A program made the position numbers and the translations under genes. DNA of 64,000 nucleotides from positions 76,144 through 140,143 of the forward strand of contig JANQNG010000002.1 of NCBI GenBank assembly GCA_028279685.1, given 5' to 3'. The stretch is from Candidatus Nanoarchaeia archaeon (GTDB taxonomy: Archaea > Nanobdellota > Nanobdellia > Woesearchaeales > SKIA01). Below the pieces are notes generated by a model. The model made no database searches, was not told the origin of the DNA, and worked only from the letters and a program-made list of their open reading frames with translations. Below, in pieces: positions 2,428 to 61,722 of the stretch (the first letter of the stretch is position 1; each line of letters opens with the position of its first letter).

Positions 2428-3765
2428 TTATGTCTGATAACCGTCATCATCACAAGTGTCACACACCCAGTCTCCATCATCTGTCTGACGAACATTTGGA
2501 TGATTTGGATTTCCTCCAGACCAACCACCACCAATAAGTTGTTGAATTTGTGGACTTTCTGAATTAGGAGTTCCGCTTCCACCAAACCAATAATCCATTA
2601 ATATAGGTAAATTAATTGTTGGCATAACATTAAAATATGAAAAATAAGAAATATGGTCTAATATACCTCTATTTGCAAATTCAATCAATTTCCCATTTTT
2701 TATAGTATATCTGTGGTGATTTATATGTGGAAACTCCATTCCTGAATGCCCAAAATCATCTCTGATAATATCAACAGTTTTCCCCGAACGTTTTGCTAGC
2801 CCAGAACCAAATTGCTCAAGTCTTTGACGAATTGTACTTCGTGGATGAAATTCTTCAGCATGTTTATATCCTTGTTCTCTTAAAACTCGATATGATTCTC
2901 CTTTTCTAAATACACTGTCTCCTACTCTTGGCTTTACTTCATTTCTTGACATTACATAGTCTACAGGTATATTTACTCTTCCTTGACTTTGTCCTAATAA
3001 TGGTGTTGGCATAATTTGATTTTGACCTAATACAAGAGCAGTTGGATTAACCATTAATGCCATCCTACCATCAGGATCTATTTTGCTCATAGGATTACCA
3101 TCTTCAAACATATAGGGATTTAATCCCTGGGGATTATACGTATTCATTATATTATCTGGCTGGTTAAATATGCCATACTCCGAATTACTCATTCTCGCTT
3201 CAAAATCAATCTCCCTAGTAACTTCATCTGTTTCTTTTCCTTCATAATCATATCTGCTGGAGCCACCTGTTAATACCTCACCATACGGAGAGTAAGAAGT
3301 ATTTTCAATTACATCTCCTGATGAATCAGTCACTACCGTCGAGCTACCTAAATGATCACTATGATGATAAGTCTTAACCCCAGATAACTCCTCCGCTACT
3401 AGGCTACCTTCATGATATACATAAGTTGTATCATAAGTGCCACTATCGTTGATGACTCTAACGTTTGTCTTGTCAAAGTAAACCACAGTTTCTACTAAAG
3501 TCTCGCTCTCATCATACGTTTTCTTGACCAAAACTCTCTCTTCTGTTGGATGGTAGATATATTCTTGGATTATGTTATCATTGGTTGCATTACGTATAAT
3601 ACTCAATTGATTAAGCGAATTATATTCTCGGTAAAAATCTTCATCAGAGTTACGAAGTAGGTTTCCGTTTGCGTCATAGGTTCGAGATATTTCTGCAGCG
3701 AAAACCAAAGGAAAAGTTGTGACGAGCAATATAAGTAGTCCGGAGATAAATAGCTTAGATTTCAC
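2428..3765 (-). CDS. secreted mini-RHS/YD-repeat polymorphic toxin (signal peptide, few YD repeats, RHS core end, C-terminal toxin domain with FPHINHH motif)
   Basis: N-terminal signal peptide MKSKLFISGLLILLVTTFPLVFAAE; YD repeats (YDANGNLL, YDTTYVY, YDYEGKE); core end YNPQGLNPYMFEDGNPMSKIDPDGRM followed by a ~210-aa variable C-terminal domain. Confidence 0.8.
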   Translation of the reverse strand: MKSKLFISGLLILLVTTFPLVFAAEISRTYDANGNLLRNSDEDFYREYNSLNQLSIIRNATNDNIIQEYIYHPTEERVLVKKTYDESETLVETVVYFDKTNVRVINDSGTYDTTYVYHEGSLVAEELSGVKTYHHSDHLGSSTVVTDSSGDVIENTSYSPYGEVLTGGSSRYDYEGKETDEVTREIDFEARMSNSEYGIFNQPDNIMNTYNPQGLNPYMFEDGNPMSKIDPDGRMALMVNPTALVLGQNQIMPTPLLGQSQGRVNIPVDYVMSRNEVKPRVGDSVFRKGESYRVLREQGYKHAEEFHPRSTIRQRLEQFGSGLAKRSGKTVDIIRDDFGHSGMEFPHINHHRYTIKNGKLIEFANRGILDHISYFSYFNVMPTINLPILMDYWFGGSGTPNSESPQIQQLIGGGWSGGNPNHPNVRQTDDGDWVCDTCDDDGYQT

Positions 3766-5681: not shown

Positions 5682-6366
5682 TCTCTATAGCAAGTCCTTT
5701 ACCTGCCTCTACCTTATAAGGTATAGCGCTCAATACATTTGATCCACTTCTCTTAAATCGTTTAACCTTCATTACTCTGACAATCTCTCCTGCAAAACTA
5801 CTGATCTCCAATTCAAGAATCACATCACTAACATTCTTCACCAATGTCAATAATTTTGGATGAATGTGATCTTGATCAATATCAATAATCACCGTTTTTC
5901 CGAGTGAAGTAAGTCTTTTTAGGAAATAGATGAATTGAAATAATTCACGTTCCGTGGTATCATCTTGAACAATCAAGAAGCTTATTGTATCGAGAATTAT
6001 CACATCTTTGCTGTAGAGCCTAGAAGAATTCATCAATCTTTGGAGCATACCTCTTTGCAGCCTTGACTTTCCATAAAAAGGAAACATGGGAACAAACATC
6101 AAATCATCATCAAGCAAATAATACTTACAATCATAATCAAGGCTTGCCATCTGTTCAATAAATCCGACAGTATCAAGTTCAGAGCTAATATATGATGCAG
6201 TGTATCCTGCCTGCAATAATCCATAGCACATTCTTTGAGAGATAATGCTTTTTCCTGAGCCATCTTGTCCTGTAATAAGAATCAACGCATCTTTAGGTAT
6301 ACCTCCTCCTATGTTTCTGTTCAGTTCATCCCTTTCAAGGTCTATGGAAAGTACTTCTGATTTCAT
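5665..6366 (-). CDS. flaH: archaellum protein FlaH/ArlH (RecA/KaiC-like ATPase)
   Basis: 233 aa; Walker A GQDGSGKS; overlaps flaI start as is typical of archaellum operons. Confidence 0.85.
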   Translation of the reverse strand: MKSEVLSIDLERDELNRNIGGGIPKDALILITGQDGSGKSIISQRMCYGLLQAGYTASYISSELDTVGFIEQMASLDYDCKYYLLDDDLMFVPMFPFYGKSRLQRGMLQRLMNSSRLYSKDVIILDTISFLIVQDDTTERELFQFIYFLKRLTSLGKTVIIDIDQDHIHPKLLTLVKNVSDVILELEISSFAGEIVRVMKVKRFKRSGSNVLSAIPYKVEAGKGLAIEIASFS

Positions 6367-7250
6367 GGTGTCACCGTGATCGTCGCTGAGTTTTCAAATT
6401 CAGTAACGGCTTTCACAATCGTATTACCTCCTAATGTTTCAAAGATGTAAAGATCTATGATCTCTCCCGGAGACCAGAGCGTAGGCTGCAGATCATCATT
6501 CGTAATAAACTCTACTCGATCTGAATCATTACGTTTGATACGTTCCGACCCGACATAAACATCAACTTTTTCAAAATCATATGTTGTTGTTCCATCATTA
6601 GAAAGTGTTAAATAGATATGAGGACTTTGTCTCATAATAGTGATATTAACTTGATCAACTTTCGCTGTTTCTTGTGTATCCACCGTCTCAAGATCAATCT
6701 TAAGTTGTATCATCGAACTTTCATTATGAGTGATATTTATTTCTTCTCCTGAAGAAGTATAATAATCAAGAGGCCCATCAGGTCCAATGAAATCAGCATT
6801 TTCTATCTGTGTCGAAGTATTTCCTGAACGTAATTGAAAACGAACTGATGTTCCCACAGGAAGTGTAGCATTCCAGTAGATCTTTGAGAAATTGCTCGAG
6901 ATATTTATGTCATAGACTTCTGAATAGTATGTTGCTGAATTGTTGTAATCAGTGCCATTCCATACTGTCTGGATTGATCCGGGTGTGGTGTTTGTGTCAA
7001 TATTCGTAAAATTTGTTCCTCTATCAAAATCAGTTTTGAGTGTTAATACCCAAGGGATGTACATTGGATTATTGTATTGCTCTCCTGTGATTGATATTTC
7101 GCTTTCAAGCATTTTCAAGAGACGATCCTGCTTTTCCGTTATTGCTTCTTCCTTCTCGAGGAGCTTTGCCTGCACTACAAAGAATCCCCCTACAAGCATA
7201 GAGACTACTAAAAACAAAATCACCATTCCTGCAATCGAAGCAAATCCCAT
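6363..7250 (-). CDS. archaellum FlaF-like membrane-anchored protein, rich in N-glycosylation sequons
   Basis: N-terminal TM helix MGFASIAGMVILFLVVSMLVGGFFVV; more than 10 N-x-S/T sequons; position between a FlaG-like gene and flaH. Confidence 0.45.
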   Translation of the reverse strand: MGFASIAGMVILFLVVSMLVGGFFVVQAKLLEKEEAITEKQDRLLKMLESEISITGEQYNNPMYIPWVLTLKTDFDRGTNFTNIDTNTTPGSIQTVWNGTDYNNSATYYSEVYDINISSNFSKIYWNATLPVGTSVRFQLRSGNTSTQIENADFIGPDGPLDYYTSSGEEINITHNESSMIQLKIDLETVDTQETAKVDQVNITIMRQSPHIYLTLSNDGTTTYDFEKVDVYVGSERIKRNDSDRVEFITNDDLQPTLWSPGEIIDLYIFETLGGNTIVKAVTEFENSATITVTP

Positions 7251-14442: not shown

Positions 14443-14469
14443 AAGCAAATAAGGCTCTTCTTAATCTAC

Positions 14470-14580
14470 AGCCCTGTAGTGTAGTGGCCAATCATTCTAG
14501 CCTTTGGAGCCGGAGCGAAGCTAGGCGGCTTTGCTTCGCAAAGACAGCTGGAGACCGCGGTTCGAATCCGCGCGGGGCTA
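14470..14580 (+). tRNA. tRNA-Gln (anticodon TTG) with a 38-nt intron at canonical position 37/38
   Basis: Hand fold: acceptor AGCCCTG/CGGGGCT, D arm GTGTAGTGGCCAATCAT, anticodon stem CTAGC/GCTGG, loop CTTTGG|intron|A, T arm CGCGG-TTCGAAT-CCGCG, discriminator A; A1-U72 and a GGGCUA 3' end fit my recollection of archaeal tRNA-Gln. Confidence 0.7.
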
Positions 14581-14697
14581 TTCTAAACCATAGGTTGAGA
14601 AATCCCCAAAGGGATTCGAACCTGCGGTTCGTGCACAAAGTCTACAACTTTGTGTGCTCGGAAAGCTACACTTTCCTCCGCAATCCGCGCAGGGCTA
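14581..14697 (+). other. tRNA-linked structured element B1: antisense T-loop segment, three hairpins, ends with a near-exact direct repeat of the tRNA-Gln 3' end
   Basis: Begins with GGGATTCGAACC; hairpins CGAACC-TGC-GGTTCG, CACAAAGT-CTACA-ACTTTGTG, GGAAAG-CTACA-CTTTCC; ends AATCCGCGCAGGGCTA vs tRNA end AATCCGCGCGGGGCTA. Confidence 0.3.
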
Positions 14698-14743
14698 CTT
14701 TTCTGTAAAAAAGTTAAAGAGACTACAGTTCGTGCTCAGAATT

Positions 14744-14995
14744 CTATTCTTTTTTCTTGACAGGATCATAGCCTCCTTTGTTAAAAGGATTACACCGCAT
14801 TATCCTGTTGAAGCCCATCACACTTCCTTTGATCAAGCCATATTCTTCTATTGCTTGTAACGTATATTCAGAACAAGAAGGTTCAAATTTGCACATATGA
14901 ATGCCTAAAAAATTATAAACAGGATAGGTGGCTTTCCTGTATGCTTTGATACATCCGACACCTACCCTTCTTGGTAAAGTATTTTCAAGAGACAT
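14744..14995 (-). CDS. yidD: YidD-family membrane protein insertion efficiency factor (DUF37)
   Basis: 83 aa; [20 protein letters not shown]...[16 protein letters not shown] matches the YidD signature CxFxPSCSxY...R(I/L)xRC(H/N)PF..GGxDPV. Confidence 0.8.
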
Positions 14996-14998
14996 TGT

Positions 14999-15316
14999 TT
15001 AGTCTTTTCTCTTTTTCACATACTCAGCAAGAGAAGAGTATGCAGGCTTAACCTCATTCCACTCTTGACCAGGCATCTTTGTTACTTCGAGCTCTTTGAA
15101 AAAATTATCTGTCTCTGTATAATCAAGGTTACCGTCCTTATCAGTATCTGCTAAGCGTACTGCTTGGTAATACTTATCTTCATAGTTCACATGTTTCTTA
15201 ATCATATTCCAACCAAGAGTTCCCAGTCCAGCATAAATACCAACAGTAATTCCGATTGTTGTAAGAACACAACCACCACCAATTCCTAAAATTTGCCATA
15301 ACTTCATTTCAATCAC
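14999..15316 (-). CDS. small membrane-anchored EF-hand calcium-binding protein (paralog 1)
   Basis: N-terminal TM helix then canonical EF-hand loop DTDKDGNLDYTE. Confidence 0.55.
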   Translation of the reverse strand: MIEMKLWQILGIGGGCVLTTIGITVGIYAGLGTLGWNMIKKHVNYEDKYYQAVRLADTDKDGNLDYTETDNFFKELEVTKMPGQEWNEVKPAYSSLAEYVKKRKD

Positions 15317-15642
15317 CTTTGGTTATACTGATCCGTAAATTCAACAAGTGTTCTGTACGGAATTTTGATATCAGGTTTCTTCCCCTCGATCATCGGAATA
15401 TCGAGTCTGCGATACATTTCTGCCGTTTCATACGTATCAAGCGTACCATCTTGATTCTCGTCCATTATAGTTTGGACTGTCTGCATTTTCTCATCATAGT
15501 CCCACGTGGACTTGATCTTATACCACGCACCTTTCAGGCCACCTAGTGCTAAAGTACCAACAATAACTGTTCCAATTACTAAAGCGCCAAGACACCCACC
15601 ACAACTGCAGCTTGAACTGCTACTACTATCATTATCTGACAT
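15313..15642 (-). CDS. small membrane-anchored EF-hand calcium-binding protein (paralog 2)
   Basis: Ser/Cys-rich N-terminus, TM helix, EF-hand loop DENQDGTLDTYE; 4-nt overlap with the downstream paralog. Confidence 0.55.
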   Translation of the reverse strand: MSDNDSSSSSSCSCGGCLGALVIGTVIVGTLALGGLKGAWYKIKSTWDYDEKMQTVQTIMDENQDGTLDTYETAEMYRRLDIPMIEGKKPDIKIPYRTLVEFTDQYNQR

Positions 15643-15748
15643 TATTATACCCCCTAATTACTGTGTGGCTTGAAAATCATTCATCGTATATAAAGCTTTT
15701 TAATTTTTCCACTCAGGAGTGCTCACAAATAAAATTAGTGCTCTCGAA

Positions 15749-15758
15749 TATATTTATA
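15749..15758 (+). promoter_or_regulatory. putative archaeal TATA box upstream of tRNA-Gln(CTG)
   Basis: ATTTATAAAT centred ~30 nt upstream of the tRNA 5' end. Confidence 0.35.
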
Positions 15759-15786
15759 AATTGTCTATTTCTCCACTACACTACGC

Positions 15787-15888
15787 AGTCCCGTAGTGTA
15801 GTGGCCAATTCACGAGAGGCTAGTCATCTCGGACTCTGGTAACATTTGGAGATATCCGAGGACCGCGGTTCGAATCCGCGCGGGACTA
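15787..15888 (+). tRNA. tRNA-Gln (anticodon CTG) with two introns: ~15 nt in the D arm and 14 nt at 37/38
   Basis: Acceptor AGTCCCG/CGGGACT, T arm CGCGG-TTCGAAT-CCGCG, anticodon stem TCGGA/TCCGA, loop CTCTGG|TAACATTTGGAGAT|A; relative to the TTG gene, an extra TTCACGAGAGGCTAG lies between GGCCAA and TCAT of the D arm; length 102 = 73 + 29. Confidence 0.6.
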
Positions 15889-16008
15889 TTCTAAACTCAA
15901 AGCTAGAATGTCCCATAAAGAATTCGAACCTGCGGTTCGTGCTCAGAAATTGTAAATTTCTGGCACCCCAAAGCTGCAAAGCAGTTTTGATGGAACCTCG
16001 CGAGGCTA
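15889..16008 (+). other. tRNA-linked structured element B2 (degenerate copy of B1 architecture)
   Basis: Shares TTCTAAAC and ATTCGAACCTGCGGTTCGTGC with B1; hairpins AGAAATT-GTA-AATTTCT and CAAAGCTGC-AAA-GCAGTTTTG (stems differ from B1 but pair); ends CGCGAGGCTA. Confidence 0.25.
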
Positions 16009-16482
16009 TTTTCCCAAAATAGTCCCTTCTCCAGCTTTATCATAAATTTTTAGCTTGTCTATGTAAAACTTGGATTGATCAAAATCCTCAATTTCAACAG
16101 AATAATTCCAATTATCATAAAATAAAACAATAGCTGATTTTGTCAAAAATCCTAAAGATTTAGCTTCACTAAAAATATCAACAATGTTTTTTGTTATTTT
16201 CAGCTTATAATGGATTTTCTTTCGATAAACATTTTTTGTCTTAATTTCATAAAGTATTATCTCTTTCTTTTTATTAGTGAAAGATATCTCAATAGAATCT
16301 ATAGAATTCCAATATTTAGCTATAAATTTACATTGCTCAAAAGAAAGATACTTTTCAAAAATAGAGAAATATTTATTCTTGTTCCAAAACTTCAGTAAAA
16401 CTGCCCATTTCCTAGTAAGCTTAAACATACACTCTCCAGCATATCCTTTATAACTACCATTTAATGATCTTAAATCATACAT
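16006..16482 (-). CDS. hypothetical protein
   Basis: 158-aa Lys/Asn-rich ORF; its stop overlaps the end of element B2. Confidence 0.3.
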   Translation of the reverse strand: MYDLRSLNGSYKGYAGECMFKLTRKWAVLLKFWNKNKYFSIFEKYLSFEQCKFIAKYWNSIDSIEISFTNKKKEIILYEIKTKNVYRKKIHYKLKITKNIVDIFSEAKSLGFLTKSAIVLFYDNWNYSVEIEDFDQSKFYIDKLKIYDKAGEGTILGK

Positions 16483-59251: not shown

Positions 59252-59322
59252 GCGCACGTGGCCAAGTAGTAAGGCAAGAGGCTGCAACCCTCTGATCCCC
59301 GGTGCAAATCCGGGCGTGCGCT
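59252..59322 (+). tRNA. tRNA-Cys (anticodon GCA), no intron
   Basis: Acceptor GCGCACG/CGTGCGC, anticodon stem AGAGG/CCTCT with loop CTGCAAC, T arm CCCGG-TGCAAAT-CCGGG, discriminator U. Confidence 0.8.
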
Positions 59323-59417
59323 TAAGAAGGGATTTGCACCTCCGGTGCATGCTCAAAAATCAAAGATTTTTGGCAACTCGGAAAACTACGTTTTCCTCCG
59401 TAATCCGGGCGTGCGCT
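59323..59417 (+). other. tRNA-linked structured element B3: antisense tRNA-Cys T-loop, hairpins, direct repeat of the tRNA-Cys 3' end
   Basis: GGGATTTGCACC is the reverse complement of the Cys T-loop region; hairpins GCACC-TCC-GGTGC, CAAAAAT-CAAAG-ATTTTTG, GGAAAAC-TAC-GTTTTCC; ends TAATCCGGGCGTGCGCTTA vs tRNA end AAATCCGGGCGTGCGCTTA. Confidence 0.3.
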
Positions 59418-59438
59418 TAACAAAAAAAAGGTGTCACT

Positions 59439-60302
59439 ATGCCATACCTCAAAAACGGAAAACACAAAGTGTACTACGAGATTCATAGAGATTCTCCTAT
59501 GCTCGTTTTTCTCCATGGAGCAACCATGAATCATACATTACTAGGGCATCAAATTAAATACGCCCAAAAATTAGGATACGGTACCCTTGCTATTGACTTA
59601 CGAGGCGCTGGTAAATCTACTTATTCAAAAGATAAATCATTTTATGATGTTGAAAACTACGTTGAAGATATCACAAAAATTCTCAAAAAAGAAAAAATAA
59701 GAAAAATAATTCCTGTGGGATTTTCGCACGGAGGTATGGTTGCACAAGCCTTTGCAGCAATGTATCCTAAAAAGACACAAGGCCTTATTCTTATCGCGAC
59801 AACCTACAATATTAACGAAACATTTTGCAATACGCTTCCAAAAAAATTATTTTTTCATGGCAGTACTGCCATAAAGAAATTAATGTTAATTTATAATCAG
59901 TTCGTATCACTATTCCACCCTCTAAAAGATAACCCTCCAAACTACACTAGTGAAAAATATAAGCATATGAATACTGCTCAATTTGTTATTGATCATTATC
60001 TCACAAGAAGTGCTGACAGAATTAAAGCAGAGCTGCAATTTAGCAGCAACATCAGATTTCAAGACATAAAAGAGCATACTAAAAAAATACGATGCCCAAC
60101 AATAATTATTCAAGGGAAAAACGATATAAGCATTACTCCTGATGTTGCTGAAGCATTGCACACTATGATTCCTTCAAGCAGCAAACCGATCTATATTGAA
60201 CAAGGAGATCATGGCATGGCATTTAATCTTCCAAATGAAGTGAATAACATATTAAAAAAAGGATTGGATTATATTTATAACCATAAAACATTAAAAGCAT
60301 GA
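59439..60302 (+). CDS. alpha/beta-fold hydrolase
   Basis: VFLHGATMNH...GFSHGGMVAQ nucleophile elbow. Confidence 0.6.
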   Translation: MPYLKNGKHKVYYEIHRDSPMLVFLHGATMNHTLLGHQIKYAQKLGYGTLAIDLRGAGKSTYSKDKSFYDVENYVEDITKILKKEKIRKIIPVGFSHGGMVAQAFAAMYPKKTQGLILIATTYNINETFCNTLPKKLFFHGSTAIKKLMLIYNQFVSLFHPLKDNPPNYTSEKYKHMNTAQFVIDHYLTRSADRIKAELQFSSNIRFQDIKEHTKKIRCPTIIIQGKNDISITPDVAEALHTMIPSSSKPIYIEQGDHGMAFNLPNEVNNILKKGLDYIYNHKTLKA

Positions 60303-60318
60303 AACAGAGGAATATACT

Positions 60319-61722
60319 ATGGACATCCAACTATTCAACACATTGACCAGAAAGAAAGAAGTATTTGCACCTATCAAGAAAGGTGAAGTGGGATTGTACT
60401 GCTGTGGACCTACTGTTTACAACTATGCTCATATAGGCAATCTGAGAGCATATCTCTTTGAAGACGTATTAGTACGAATGTTCAAATATAATCAATTCAA
60501 AATAACCCATGTGATGAATATCACTGATGTCGGGCATTTAACTTCTGATGCTGACGAAGGAGAAGATAAAATGCTCAAAGGAGCAAAAAGAGAAGGTAAA
60601 ACAGTCTATGAAATTGCTGATCATTACACGAAAGCATTTTTCAATGATACTGAACAACTGAACATTTTGCATCCAAATGTAACACCAAAAGCGACAGAGC
60701 ACATTAAGCAAATGATTGTATTAGTCAAACGATTAGAAGAGAATGGATTAACGTATGTTGCTGGAGGGAATGTTTATTTTGACACAAGCAAGTTCCCTAA
60801 GTATGGAGAACTTGCCAGATTAAAACTTGATGAACTAAAAGAAGGTGCTCGTGTTGATAAAGACCCCAACAAAAAAAATCCTACTGACTTTGTATTATGG
60901 TTTACCAAATCAAAGTTTACCGATCAAGAAATGAAATGGGATTCTCCTTGGGGAACAGGCTATCCTGGTTGGCATATTGAATGTAGTGCAATGAGTATGG
61001 AGTATTTAGGAGAGCAATTCGATATCCACTGTGGAGGTATTGATCATATTCCTGTACACCATACTAATGAGATTGCACAATCAGAAGGTGCCACTGGTAA
61101 AAAATGGGTCAATATATGGATGCATAACGAATTTCTTGTAGATGAGAAAGGAAAAATGGCTAAATCTGCAGGAGCATTTCTCACACTATCTGTACTGAAA
61201 GAGAAGGGTTATGATCCTTTAGTATATAGATACTTTACTTTGGGAACATCATATAGAAAACCTTTGATGTTAAGCTACGATGCACTAGATGGTGCAAAGA
61301 ATGCATTCGAGAACTTGAAAAAAAAGATCATTGAATTACAAAAAGAATCTTCAGAAGCGAAGAAAGGAAGTGAGAAAAAGTTTGAACAATACAGCAAAGA
61401 TTTTCTTGCAGCAATCAATGATGATCTGAATACTCCAAAAGCTCTTGCATTATTATGGGATGTGTTAAAAGATAATGAATTAAAATCAGAAACAAAGTAT
61501 TACTTAGTGTTAGATTTCGATCGTGTTTTGGGCTTTGGATTAGATAAAGTTAAAGAAGAAAAAATAGATATTCCTGATGAGATAAAAGCTATTGCTGAAA
61601 AGAGGTCAGAAGCAAGAAAGAAGAAAGATTGGGGTGCTTCTGACCAGTTACGAGATGAGTTAAGGAAAAAAGGATGGGTTATTGAGGATACGAAAGAAGG
61701 GTATGAATTGAAGAAAGGATAA
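60319..61722 (+). CDS. cysS: cysteinyl-tRNA synthetase
   Basis: HIGN (HIGH-type) motif in YNYAHIGNLRAY; KMSKS-type KMAKSAG; CysRS-like zinc-binding Cys pattern. Confidence 0.9.
   Translation: MDIQLFNTLTRKKEVFAPIKKGEVGLYCCGPTVYNYAHIGNLRAYLFEDVLVRMFKYNQFKITHVMNITDVGHLTSDADEGEDKMLKGAKREGKTVYEIADHYTKAFFNDTEQLNILHPNVTPKATEHIKQMIVLVKRLEENGLTYVAGGNVYFDTSKFPKYGELARLKLDELKEGARVDKDPNKKNPTDFVLWFTKSKFTDQEMKWDSPWGTGYPGWHIECSAMSMEYLGEQFDIHCGGIDHIPVHHTNEIAQSEGATGKKWVNIWMHNEFLVDEKGKMAKSAGAFLTLSVLKEKGYDPLVYRYFTLGTSYRKPLMLSYDALDGAKNAFENLKKKIIELQKESSEAKKGSEKKFEQYSKDFLAAINDDLNTPKALALLWDVLKDNELKSETKYYLVLDFDRVLGFGLDKVKEEKIDIPDEIKAIAEKRSEARKKKDWGASDQLRDELRKKGWVIEDTKEGYELKKG

Follow-up and report, generated by a model that had tools for sequence, protein, structure and literature searches.

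Three tRNA genes lie in the 64,000-nucleotide stretch of a Candidatus Nanoarchaeia genome analysed here (the window; assembly GCA_028279685.1, contig JANQNG010000002.1), and each of them is followed by a hairpin-rich element of 95–120 nt that is composed in part of copies of the tRNA in front of it; one of the loci also holds a tandem remnant. The elements are designated E1, after tRNA-Gln(UUG), E2, after tRNA-Gln(CUG), and E3, after tRNA-Cys(GCA); their parts are an antisense segment (AS), a sense segment (S2), a core with two hairpins (hp1 and hp2), and a second copy of the tRNA 3′ end (A2). Positions are those of the window, on the forward strand, unless a contig is named. The elements are real, statistically secure, and tailored to their tRNAs, and their kind was not found elsewhere in the collections searched.

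The element after tRNA-Cys and its counterparts after tRNA-Gln

The tRNA-Cys(GCA) gene (59252–59322; ARAGORN; Rfam, 59.7 bits) has an intact cloverleaf with the T-loop UGCAAAU and does not encode CCA. The original prediction had placed a repeat-bearing element with two hairpins behind this gene, directly upstream of a hydrolase gene and cysS, and both statements are borne out: E3 is followed directly by an alpha/beta-hydrolase-like open reading frame (ORF; 59439–60302) and, 16 nt after it, by cysS (60319–61722). The repeat search returned an inverted repeat of GGTGCAAATCC (59301–59311, tRNA nt 52–62) with GGATTTGCACC (59330–59340), matching at 11/11 positions; a direct repeat, CCGGTGCA, of tRNA nt 50–57 (59299–59306 and 59342–59349; 8/8); and a direct repeat that matches at 21 of 22 positions (59307–59328 and 59402–59423) and includes 19 exact nucleotides, AATCCGGGCGTGCGCTTAA. 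The first copy of this exact block (Y′, 59307–59325) comprises tRNA nt A58–U73 and 3 trailer nt, and the second (A2, 59402–59420) is identical to it at 19/19 positions; the predicted duplication of the tRNA 3′ end is thus confirmed, its extent being 16 tRNA nt and 3 trailer nt instead of the last 18 nt of the tRNA.

Between the two copies lie AS (59329–59340, GGGATTTGCACC), the last 11 nt of which are the exact reverse complement of tRNA nt 52–62 (T-stem GG, T-loop, T-stem CC); a single T with S2 (59341–59349), the sense copy of tRNA nt 50–57; and a core of 52 nt (59350–59401) that consists of TGC, hp1 (59354–59372, arms CAAAAATC/GATTTTTG), hp2 (59380–59396, arms GGAAAAC/GTTTTCC), and a final T, hp2 being contained in the conserved motif CTCGGAAAACTACGTTTTCCTCCG (59377–59400). 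The antisense copy had been read as 12 nt; it is exact over 11 nt, the first G of GGGATT facing a G in the tRNA, and the T preceding AATCC is not derived from the tRNA. AS and S2 form a hairpin, hp0, of 6 bp with a 3-nt loop. S2 and A2 together amount to a 27-nt tRNA copy that extends from the 5′ strand of the T-stem to 3 nt beyond the 3′ end, with the core as a clean interruption at T-loop position 57|58; the junctions of the core itself are without duplication. Position 55 of tRNAs is almost universally U (pseudouridine 55); the T-loop of this tRNA-Cys (59305–59311) has G there, and the oddity is reproduced in AS and S2 of its element.

The tRNA-Gln(UUG) gene (14470–14580; Rfam, 45.1 bits) contains a canonical 38-nt intron at 37/38, the bulge-helix-bulge (BHB) motif of which was recovered. 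E1 (14581–14697) has the same order of parts as E3: a spacer (14581–14610); AS (14611–14622; GGGATTCGAACC, 11/11 antisense to the T-arm); T and S2 (14623–14631; GCGGTTCG, 8/8 sense); a core of 50 nt (14632–14681) with hp1 at 14634–14654 and the hp2 motif at 14657–14680; and A2 (14682–14697; AATCCGCGCAGGGCTA, 15/16 against the tRNA 3′ end at 14565–14580). Each tRNA-derived part of E1 tracks tRNA-Gln, and the earlier statement that antisense and sense parts follow the host tRNA stands for the Cys element and the Gln(UUG) element alike. The sole difference between the two repeat copies at E1 is G67 in the tRNA and A in A2, by which the U6–G67 wobble becomes a Watson–Crick pair. The A67 of A2 has a second partner in the invariant T that separates AS from S2, giving an alternative 5-bp helix (CCUGC/GCAGG).

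Directly behind A2 of E1, the repeat search and nhmmer disclosed a 48-nt fragment, F (14698–14745, forward strand), the degraded start of a further unit. It consists of a TTCTGTAAA-type spacer and CTACAGTTCG-TGC-TCAGAA, is identical to E2 over 14 nt, and extends into the end of a yidD-like gene (its 3′ end). A third copy of the Gln 3′ repeat, at 15873, proved to be part of the tRNA-Gln(CUG) gene (15787–15888), which has two introns (a canonical one at 37/38, with a canonical BHB, and an insertion of ~17 nt in the D-arm region). Neither ARAGORN nor the Rfam gathering run over the whole window reported this gene; in a local Rfam search it scored 40.8 bits, above the gathering score of 29 bits. 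E2 (15889–16008) is a degraded version of the element. Its spacer is homologous to that of E1; AS (GAATTCGAACC, 15920–15930) matches the T-arm antisense at 10/11 positions, and the G upstream of it (GGGATT in E1) is also A; T and S2 occupy 15931–15939, S2 being perfect; the core of 54 nt (15940–15993) has a perfect hp1 (15943–15963) and a different, perfect 9-bp second hairpin (15969–15989); A2 (15994–16008) is degenerate. The two Gln loci, 1.3 kb apart, have the T-arm, the trailer, and the left half of the element in common.

By analytic estimate, chance alone would give 0.0013 inverted matches as long as the exact 11-mer and 1.7e-8 direct matches as long as the 19-mer. Two copies of the conserved core motif CTCGGAAAnCTACnnTTTCCTCCG are present in the window (0.00 expected), as are two of the 16-mer of the tRNA 3′ end, with up to 3 mismatches allowed (0.06 expected from shuffles). 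Neither a profile of the three elements nor a scan with the core motif detected an orphan copy in the 64 kb.

The source contig at NCBI is 144.8 kb long; the assembly used for comparison consists of fragmentary Logan contigs of run SRR20820740. Logan contig L037 corresponds to window 14466–16023 with 0 mismatches, an agreement of independent assemblies that rules out an assembly artefact for E1, F, and E2; at E3 the Logan contigs leave a gap (59300–59706), and this element is known from the source assembly only. The Logan contigs stop at 59299, just before the tRNA-Cys T-arm, and restart at 59707; the separate Logan contig over the Gln loci, of 1558 bp, extends exactly from the 5′ end of tRNA-Gln(UUG) to the end of E2 (14466/16023). 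Strain heterogeneity or a drop in coverage is a possible cause of these breaks at the element loci, because the repeats are shorter than the word size of the assembler (31 nt, assumed).

Genomic setting, predicted folds, and explanations at the RNA level

The window is archaeal: its ORFs encode, by Pfam assignment, a PIN-RpoE′-Spt4-S24e-S27ae cluster and S8e, and its tRNAs have BHB introns. The best non-self matches of CysS and RpoE′ are in metagenome-assembled genomes of Woesearchaeota/Nanoarchaeota at only 62–67% identity, and close relatives are therefore lacking for comparison. The cysS and PIN-RpoE′ neighbourhoods of these closest relatives contain no tRNA-Cys; in ~89 kb of relatives' loci scanned, a single tRNA was present, a tRNA-Phe (contig L021) with a plain, immediate T-rich trailer and no element. 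Elsewhere in the window, two neighbouring ORFs on the reverse strand (244–1281 and 2428–3765) share a long, near-identical internal stretch (VKKTYDESETL..YDYEGKE) followed by differing C-termini, a layout that resembles polymorphic-toxin (RHS/YD-type) cassettes with swapped tips.

Downstream of E3, the gap between A2 and the ATG of the hydrolase gene is 18 nt, and no TATA-like box is visible (59421–59441). Co-transcription of tRNA-Cys with hydrolase and cysS is likely for these reasons, and tRNA-Cys, E3, hydrolase, and cysS probably form one transcription unit that links tRNA-Cys to its synthetase. Both Gln elements, E1 and E2, face convergent genes.

This setting bears on the explanation that the elements are co-transcribed, functional 3′-trailer RNAs, akin to the co-evolving cis-acting RNA that the original prediction had named as an alternative. 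In such an RNA, AS would pair with the T-arm and the duplicated acceptor 3′ strand would compete for the tRNA 5′ end, so that the pre-tRNA could switch between tRNA and non-tRNA folds, or a small RNA could be released by tRNase Z; at tRNA-Cys the trailer would double as the 5′ leader of the hydrolase-cysS transcript. We regard this as the main rival of the insertion proposal given below, unlikely though well within the range of serious possibilities. It accords with the run of E3 into the ribosome-binding site and ATG of the hydrolase gene, with no TATA-like box between, and with the observation that none of the three tRNAs is directly followed by a T-run (the first T4 stands after E1 and after E2), whereas the tRNA-Phe of the relative has an immediate T-rich trailer. 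Occurrence at 3/3 tRNAs is also in its favour, and tRNA-sRNA (small RNA) dicistronic transcripts are known in Nanoarchaeum.

The predicted folds are to be considered here too. AS can pair with the real T-arm as a continuous 11-bp helix without bulges. In the alternative, it can pair with S2 (6 bp, 3-nt loop) and the first 5 nt of A2, by which the T-arm duplex is rebuilt and the core is looped out; this four-way fold is the predicted minimum-energy structure of E1. For tRNA and trailer together, the fold with the acceptor stem closed by the second copy and AS on the T-arm is predicted to be the more stable one, at −65.3 versus −59.8 kcal/mol for Cys and −109.5 versus −87.0 kcal/mol for Gln (margins of 5.5 and 22.5 kcal/mol), a point in favour of a trailer RNA. 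So is the retention of stems through compensatory change, a G–C pair of hp2 in E1 being A–T in E3, and hp1 has unrelated sequence and the same shape in E1, E2, and E3. The cores of E1 and E3 are ~25% different, and the tRNA-matching parts of both are perfect but for one position in A2 of E1 (15/16), which also speaks for a trailer RNA.

Against these points, however, E2 has lost AS and A2 matching beside an intact-looking tRNA, fragment F is a dead tandem copy, and the alternative fold follows automatically from any inverted repeat combined with a direct one. The hairpins are near-perfect palindromes, most with loops of 3 nt, and both strands fold equally well (z −2.2 to −3.2), which does not indicate RNA. 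The downstream context is inconsistent, with convergent genes at both Gln elements, and conservation was not seen outside the source genome. No Rfam family matches: families other than tRNA reach E ~0.07 or worse, far below threshold, including weak matches to twister-sister, CRISPR-repeat, and permuted-tmRNA families. Boxes of a C/D or H/ACA guide RNA for T-loop modification were not seen by eye, and matches of AS–S2 to the 16S rRNA 3′ end (GAACCUGCGGUU, CACCUCC) were judged a coincidental outcome of the T-arm sequence.

The T4 runs behind E1 and E2, the wealth of hairpins, and the presence of an element after 3/3 tRNAs would also suit a generic transcription terminator or processing signal of tRNA genes, an explanation that we consider very unlikely. 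The original prediction had held that elements at most tRNAs would point to such a terminator. They do, formally, stand at all three tRNAs of the window; this occupancy does not imply a generic terminator, because the elements are adapted to their tRNAs, which a generic signal has no need to be, and are without terminator features. E3 has no T-run and continues into the next gene, and the tRNA of the relative ends without such an element. Archaeal termination uses oligo-T and is not known to use hairpins.

The intron-bearing tRNAs of this organism bring in a further explanation at the RNA level, a T-loop intron, an alternative 3′ exon, or a split-tRNA-like arrangement resolved by the BHB splicing endonuclease. 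S2, core, and A2 do resemble a T-arm with an insertion at 57/58, and the 11-nt complementarity between trailer and T-arm recalls the leader-trailer helices of split tRNAs. A BHB was taken to require, at each of the two splice sites, a 4-bp helix with 3-nt bulges on either side, kept among the copies. A good BHB-like candidate occurs in E2 (15941/15996, with an outer helix of 5 bp and an inner one of 6 bp) and a weaker one in E1 (14631/14687); the scan is noisy, though, with 17 chance matches in 245 nt, and while it recovers both genuine introns (outer helix 7 bp), it finds no motif at equivalent junctions across the three elements and none in E3. As the first copy is already a complete, high-scoring tRNA, and the helix of AS with the T-arm is continuous over 11 bp and unbulged, this explanation is largely refuted and very unlikely.

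Proposed insertion of a miniature tRNA-targeting element

The explanation that we tentatively favour is that a miniature, non-autonomous DNA element has inserted repeatedly and site-specifically into tRNA genes and has left the elements as its footprints, its target being the segment from the T-loop to the 3′ end, which also serves T-loop-class tyrosine integrases as attB. Insertion would spare the tRNA: its 3′ portion would be displaced or duplicated, giving the direct repeat from A58 to just beyond the 3′ end, and the inserted unit would have the order spacer, AS, S2, two-hairpin core. In single-stranded form, AS would pair with S2 and the first 5 nt of the repeat, rebuilding an 11-bp duplex identical to that of the T-arm, with the core looped out at 57|58; the folded unit would thus be a mimic of its target, by analogy with integron attC and CTX phage attP. 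The element would move as single-stranded DNA, by means of a recombinase encoded elsewhere. As the evidence comes from a single genome, this mechanism is inferred.

The sequences show directly the anatomy, the tracking of two different tRNAs, the remnant in tandem, the decay of one copy, and a strict association with tRNAs. The direct repeat varies in length (19–22 nt at Cys, 16 nt at Gln), and since it starts at A58 in Cys and in Gln(UUG) and ends at or just after the 3′ end, it is anchored on tRNA landmarks in the manner of attachment-site (att) blocks; an identity block from the tRNA loop to the 3′ end, with the tRNA intact, is present at both loci. F follows A2 of E1 as E1 follows the tRNA, which fits tandem accretion and counts for insertion. 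The matching parts are not required for the tRNA, because in E2 AS is mutated and A2 degenerate beside an intact tRNA. The better U6–A67 pairing in A2 of E1 would be expected if A2 were the displaced original 3′ end. Palindromic, strand-symmetric hairpins are typical of hairpin sites that act at the level of DNA. Strict linkage (3/3 tRNAs, no orphan in 64 kb) fits insertion, as do the element-free tRNA-Phe of the relative and a tyrosine recombinase gene ~8 kb downstream of tRNA-Cys. The latter encodes 223 aa (PF00589, E = 9e-42; contig L020, 7863–8534, reverse strand, ~67.6–68.2 kb in window coordinates and thus beyond the window) and comes after cysS, DUF7980, HTH, MoxR-AAA, VWA, and two phosphatase-like genes.

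The original prediction had spoken of att-derived arms of an integrating element, which is supported in part. The repeat from T-loop to 3′ end, the tandem remnant F, and the decayed E2 agree with that proposal; the lack of a mobility gene and of a repeat-bounded multi-kilobase island, the antisense copy, and the hairpin-split second core copy do not. It is because an ordinary att duplication leaves the antisense copy and the core split unexplained that a miniature unit with a folded mimic of its target is proposed.

Several observations weigh against insertion. Genes for a recombinase, transposase, reverse transcriptase, or Cas1 are absent inside or beside any copy: none is present among the 28 window ORFs scanned, and the 76–101 bp between the repeats contain no ORF. 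The sole recombinase seen, that on contig L020, could be either an integrase or the housekeeping XerA, and a further tRNA-Cys 3′ repeat that would bound a larger island up to this gene was not found in L020. The elements have no terminal inverted repeats, and neither an empty site nor a circular junction was observed. The repeat-bounded unit, at 95–117 bp, is too short for a double-stranded circle. Simple attL/attR duplication explains neither AS nor the split of the second core copy by hairpins; diverged cores of E1 and E3 combined with perfect tRNA matches require recent insertion of tRNA-specific subfamilies, templating at insertion, or selection; and for a selfish element, 3/3 is a high occupancy.

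A further point against insertion is that public collections yielded no other copy, in searches that relied on exact motifs or close similarity and that diverged versions would escape. The motif CGGAAAN{5,9}TTTCCTCCGNAATCC gave 19 matches in the species-representative genomes of GTDB, all in bacterial coding regions or by chance; four patterns gave 0 matches in IMG/VR; TCGGAAANCTACNNTTTCCTCC gave 8 matches in JGI metagenomes, 0 of them archaeal or tRNA-linked. In blastn, neither E3 (against phages) nor E1 (against plasmids) had a match. Two peptide queries, aimed at spurious ORFs called across similar elements, were likewise without a match: 41 aa read in frame from E1, compared with 1.84 billion representatives, and a 74-aa ORF, compared with an index of 5.8 billion proteins.

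The repeats might also be by-products without mobility or function, that is, old local duplications of tRNA 3′ parts in which gene conversion from the adjacent tRNA has kept S2 and A2 identical to it, AS having followed by way of two compensatory substitutions that preserve the hairpin of AS with S2. In favour of this, only 2 positions of AS and 2 of the T-loop part of S2 differ between the Gln and Cys versions; the remaining frame of AS (GGATT...ACC) is set by T-arm features common to tRNA-Gln and tRNA-Cys. The T-arm, trailer, and left half shared by the two Gln loci also fit duplication or conversion over 1.3 kb. Nevertheless, tRNA-Gln and tRNA-Cys are implausible as recent duplicates; to turn A2 of the Gln type (16 nt) into that of tRNA-Cys, with ~7 differences between them, would take conversion tracts without flanking homology; and the breakpoints, at nt 50, 57|58, and 52–62, are the same at the two loci, a recurrence that points to a determinate process. 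On balance we think this explanation improbable.

Comparison with known systems and significance

The closest kin of the elements are att-site duplications at tRNA genes, of which class they are not standard members. In the T-loop class of tyrosine-integrase elements (class II sublocation), att identity blocks extend from the T-loop to the tRNA 3′ end (PMC1762012, PMC8371274); the 26-bp T-loop core of mycobacteriophage Ms6 must match a particular tRNA, and its editing allows retargeting (PMC1762012); in archaea, integrases have a preference for the 3′ ends of tRNA genes, the 5′ limit being variable and att sites as short as 14 nt (PMC8371274); and such integrations commonly leave tRNA fragments behind (PMC9897764, PMC8371274). 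The elements resemble these duplications in the intact tRNA, in a repeat from the T-loop to or past the 3′ end, and in tandem remnants, and the 27 nt of S2 and A2 have the same span as the Ms6 core. They differ in that the repeats are only 95–117 bp apart, with neither integrase nor cargo between them, in that a hairpin module of 50–54 nt divides the second core copy at 57|58 and an antisense T-arm is present in addition, and in that the same small architecture recurs at different tRNAs.

With integron attC and CTX phage attP(+), the elements have in common an imperfect fold of several hairpins, in which distant segments pair into a target-like duplex, and the retention of structure rather than sequence. 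The boxes R″ (RYYYAAC) and R′ (GTTRRRY), however, are absent from the ends of E1 and E3, which are accordingly rejected as members of the attC class, and neither IntI nor a cassette array is present; the order of parts fits a CTX integration product only with strand exchange at the junction of core and repeat.

A further likeness to attC lies in hp2. Seven of the eight metagenome matches to the hp2 pattern contain a perfect 7-bp hairpin (estimated chance, ~0.09 per match), and in six of these, from genomes with a GC content of 0.34–0.62, it forms the tip of a long imperfect hairpin that has ..CCTAAC and GTTRRRY at its ends. The 22-nt hairpin TCGGAAAGCTACGCTTTCCTCC is at the tip of integron attC-like hairpins in the bacterial contigs L024 (2537–2558), L028 (62–83), L029 (10021–10042), L025 (6072–6093; site, ~5940–6130), L026 (1119–1140), and L030 (5322–5343), the last three of which have the attC boxes; the Cys version occurs in L031 (381–402; GC, 0.69). 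L025 is an integron cassette array, since consecutive attC sites, the next one at ~6560–6640, flank a small ORF. No Rfam family matched the contigs with the 22-nt hairpin. The bacterial version of hp2 (G..GC) is intermediate between the Gln and Cys versions. The sharing of hp2 may be due to homology, to convergent evolution of a stable triloop hairpin, or to a tiny module with a place at hairpin apices.

Casposon insertions and other long target-site duplications are similar in that insertion at a tRNA 3′ end is flanked by a direct repeat of the tRNA 3′ end. A casposon or a miniature inverted-repeat element (MITE) was rejected, because the two ends of the element do not form an inverted repeat and the direct repeat is not of one length at all loci; Cas1 is also lacking. 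The repeat, 16 versus 19–22 nt and anchored at A58, is unlike the fixed 14–15 bp of the casposon type; variation in length with a fixed start at A58 disfavours a ruler-type target-site duplication, and S2 and AS cannot be accounted for by target-site duplication at all.

Palindrome-associated elements of the IS200/IS605 type and guide-bearing IS110 bridge-RNA elements are alike in their pair of similar subterminal hairpins, in splitting the target cleanly so that the core junctions are unduplicated, and in carrying segments that are complementary to the sequence on either side of the insertion point. Unlike in these, the core is far shorter, and TnpA (none among the 28 ORFs scanned), TnpB, and a DEDD recombinase were not found; the flanking target tetranucleotide, TGCA versus TTCG, changes without a covarying guide beside hp1. 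Disrupted archaeal tRNA genes (with non-canonical BHB introns, split, or permuted), finally, are comparable in their extra tRNA pieces and in the complementarity of flank and tRNA, and the organism has intron-containing tRNAs; the tRNAs in question are undisrupted, and no conserved BHB is present at the element junctions. Models in which tRNA disruption originates from mobile elements exist (PMC3293823, PMC3218864).

A stronger form of the insertion proposal is that of a new, target-programmed mini element, which would carry or regenerate sense and antisense images of the T-arm, whose folded strand would show its own target duplex with the core looped out at the point of exchange, and whose hp2 may be the same hairpin as that at attC tips; we put this forward as a speculative extension, and doubt it. 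If hp2 is the same hairpin, a cross-domain family of small modules at the apices of hairpin-forming recombination sites would come into view. A trailer RNA by which every pre-tRNA is switched from one fold to another would be just as novel.

If the elements are mobile, they would be unusually small tRNA-targeting elements with target recognition written in their own sequence, and would inform on the switching of att specificity between tRNAs and possibly on programmable insertion. Genes for tRNAs are classic targets of integrating elements, and the disruption of archaeal tRNA genes is attributed to such events; small intermediates are rarely seen. Such elements can also confound tRNA annotation, one of the three tRNAs here having been missed by standard tools. 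If they are instead an RNA device, they would amount to a level of control over the maturation of tRNAs throughout the genome of a reduced archaeon of the DPANN (an ultra-small lineage), one that at tRNA-Cys would be physically coupled to the operon of the cysteinyl-tRNA synthetase.

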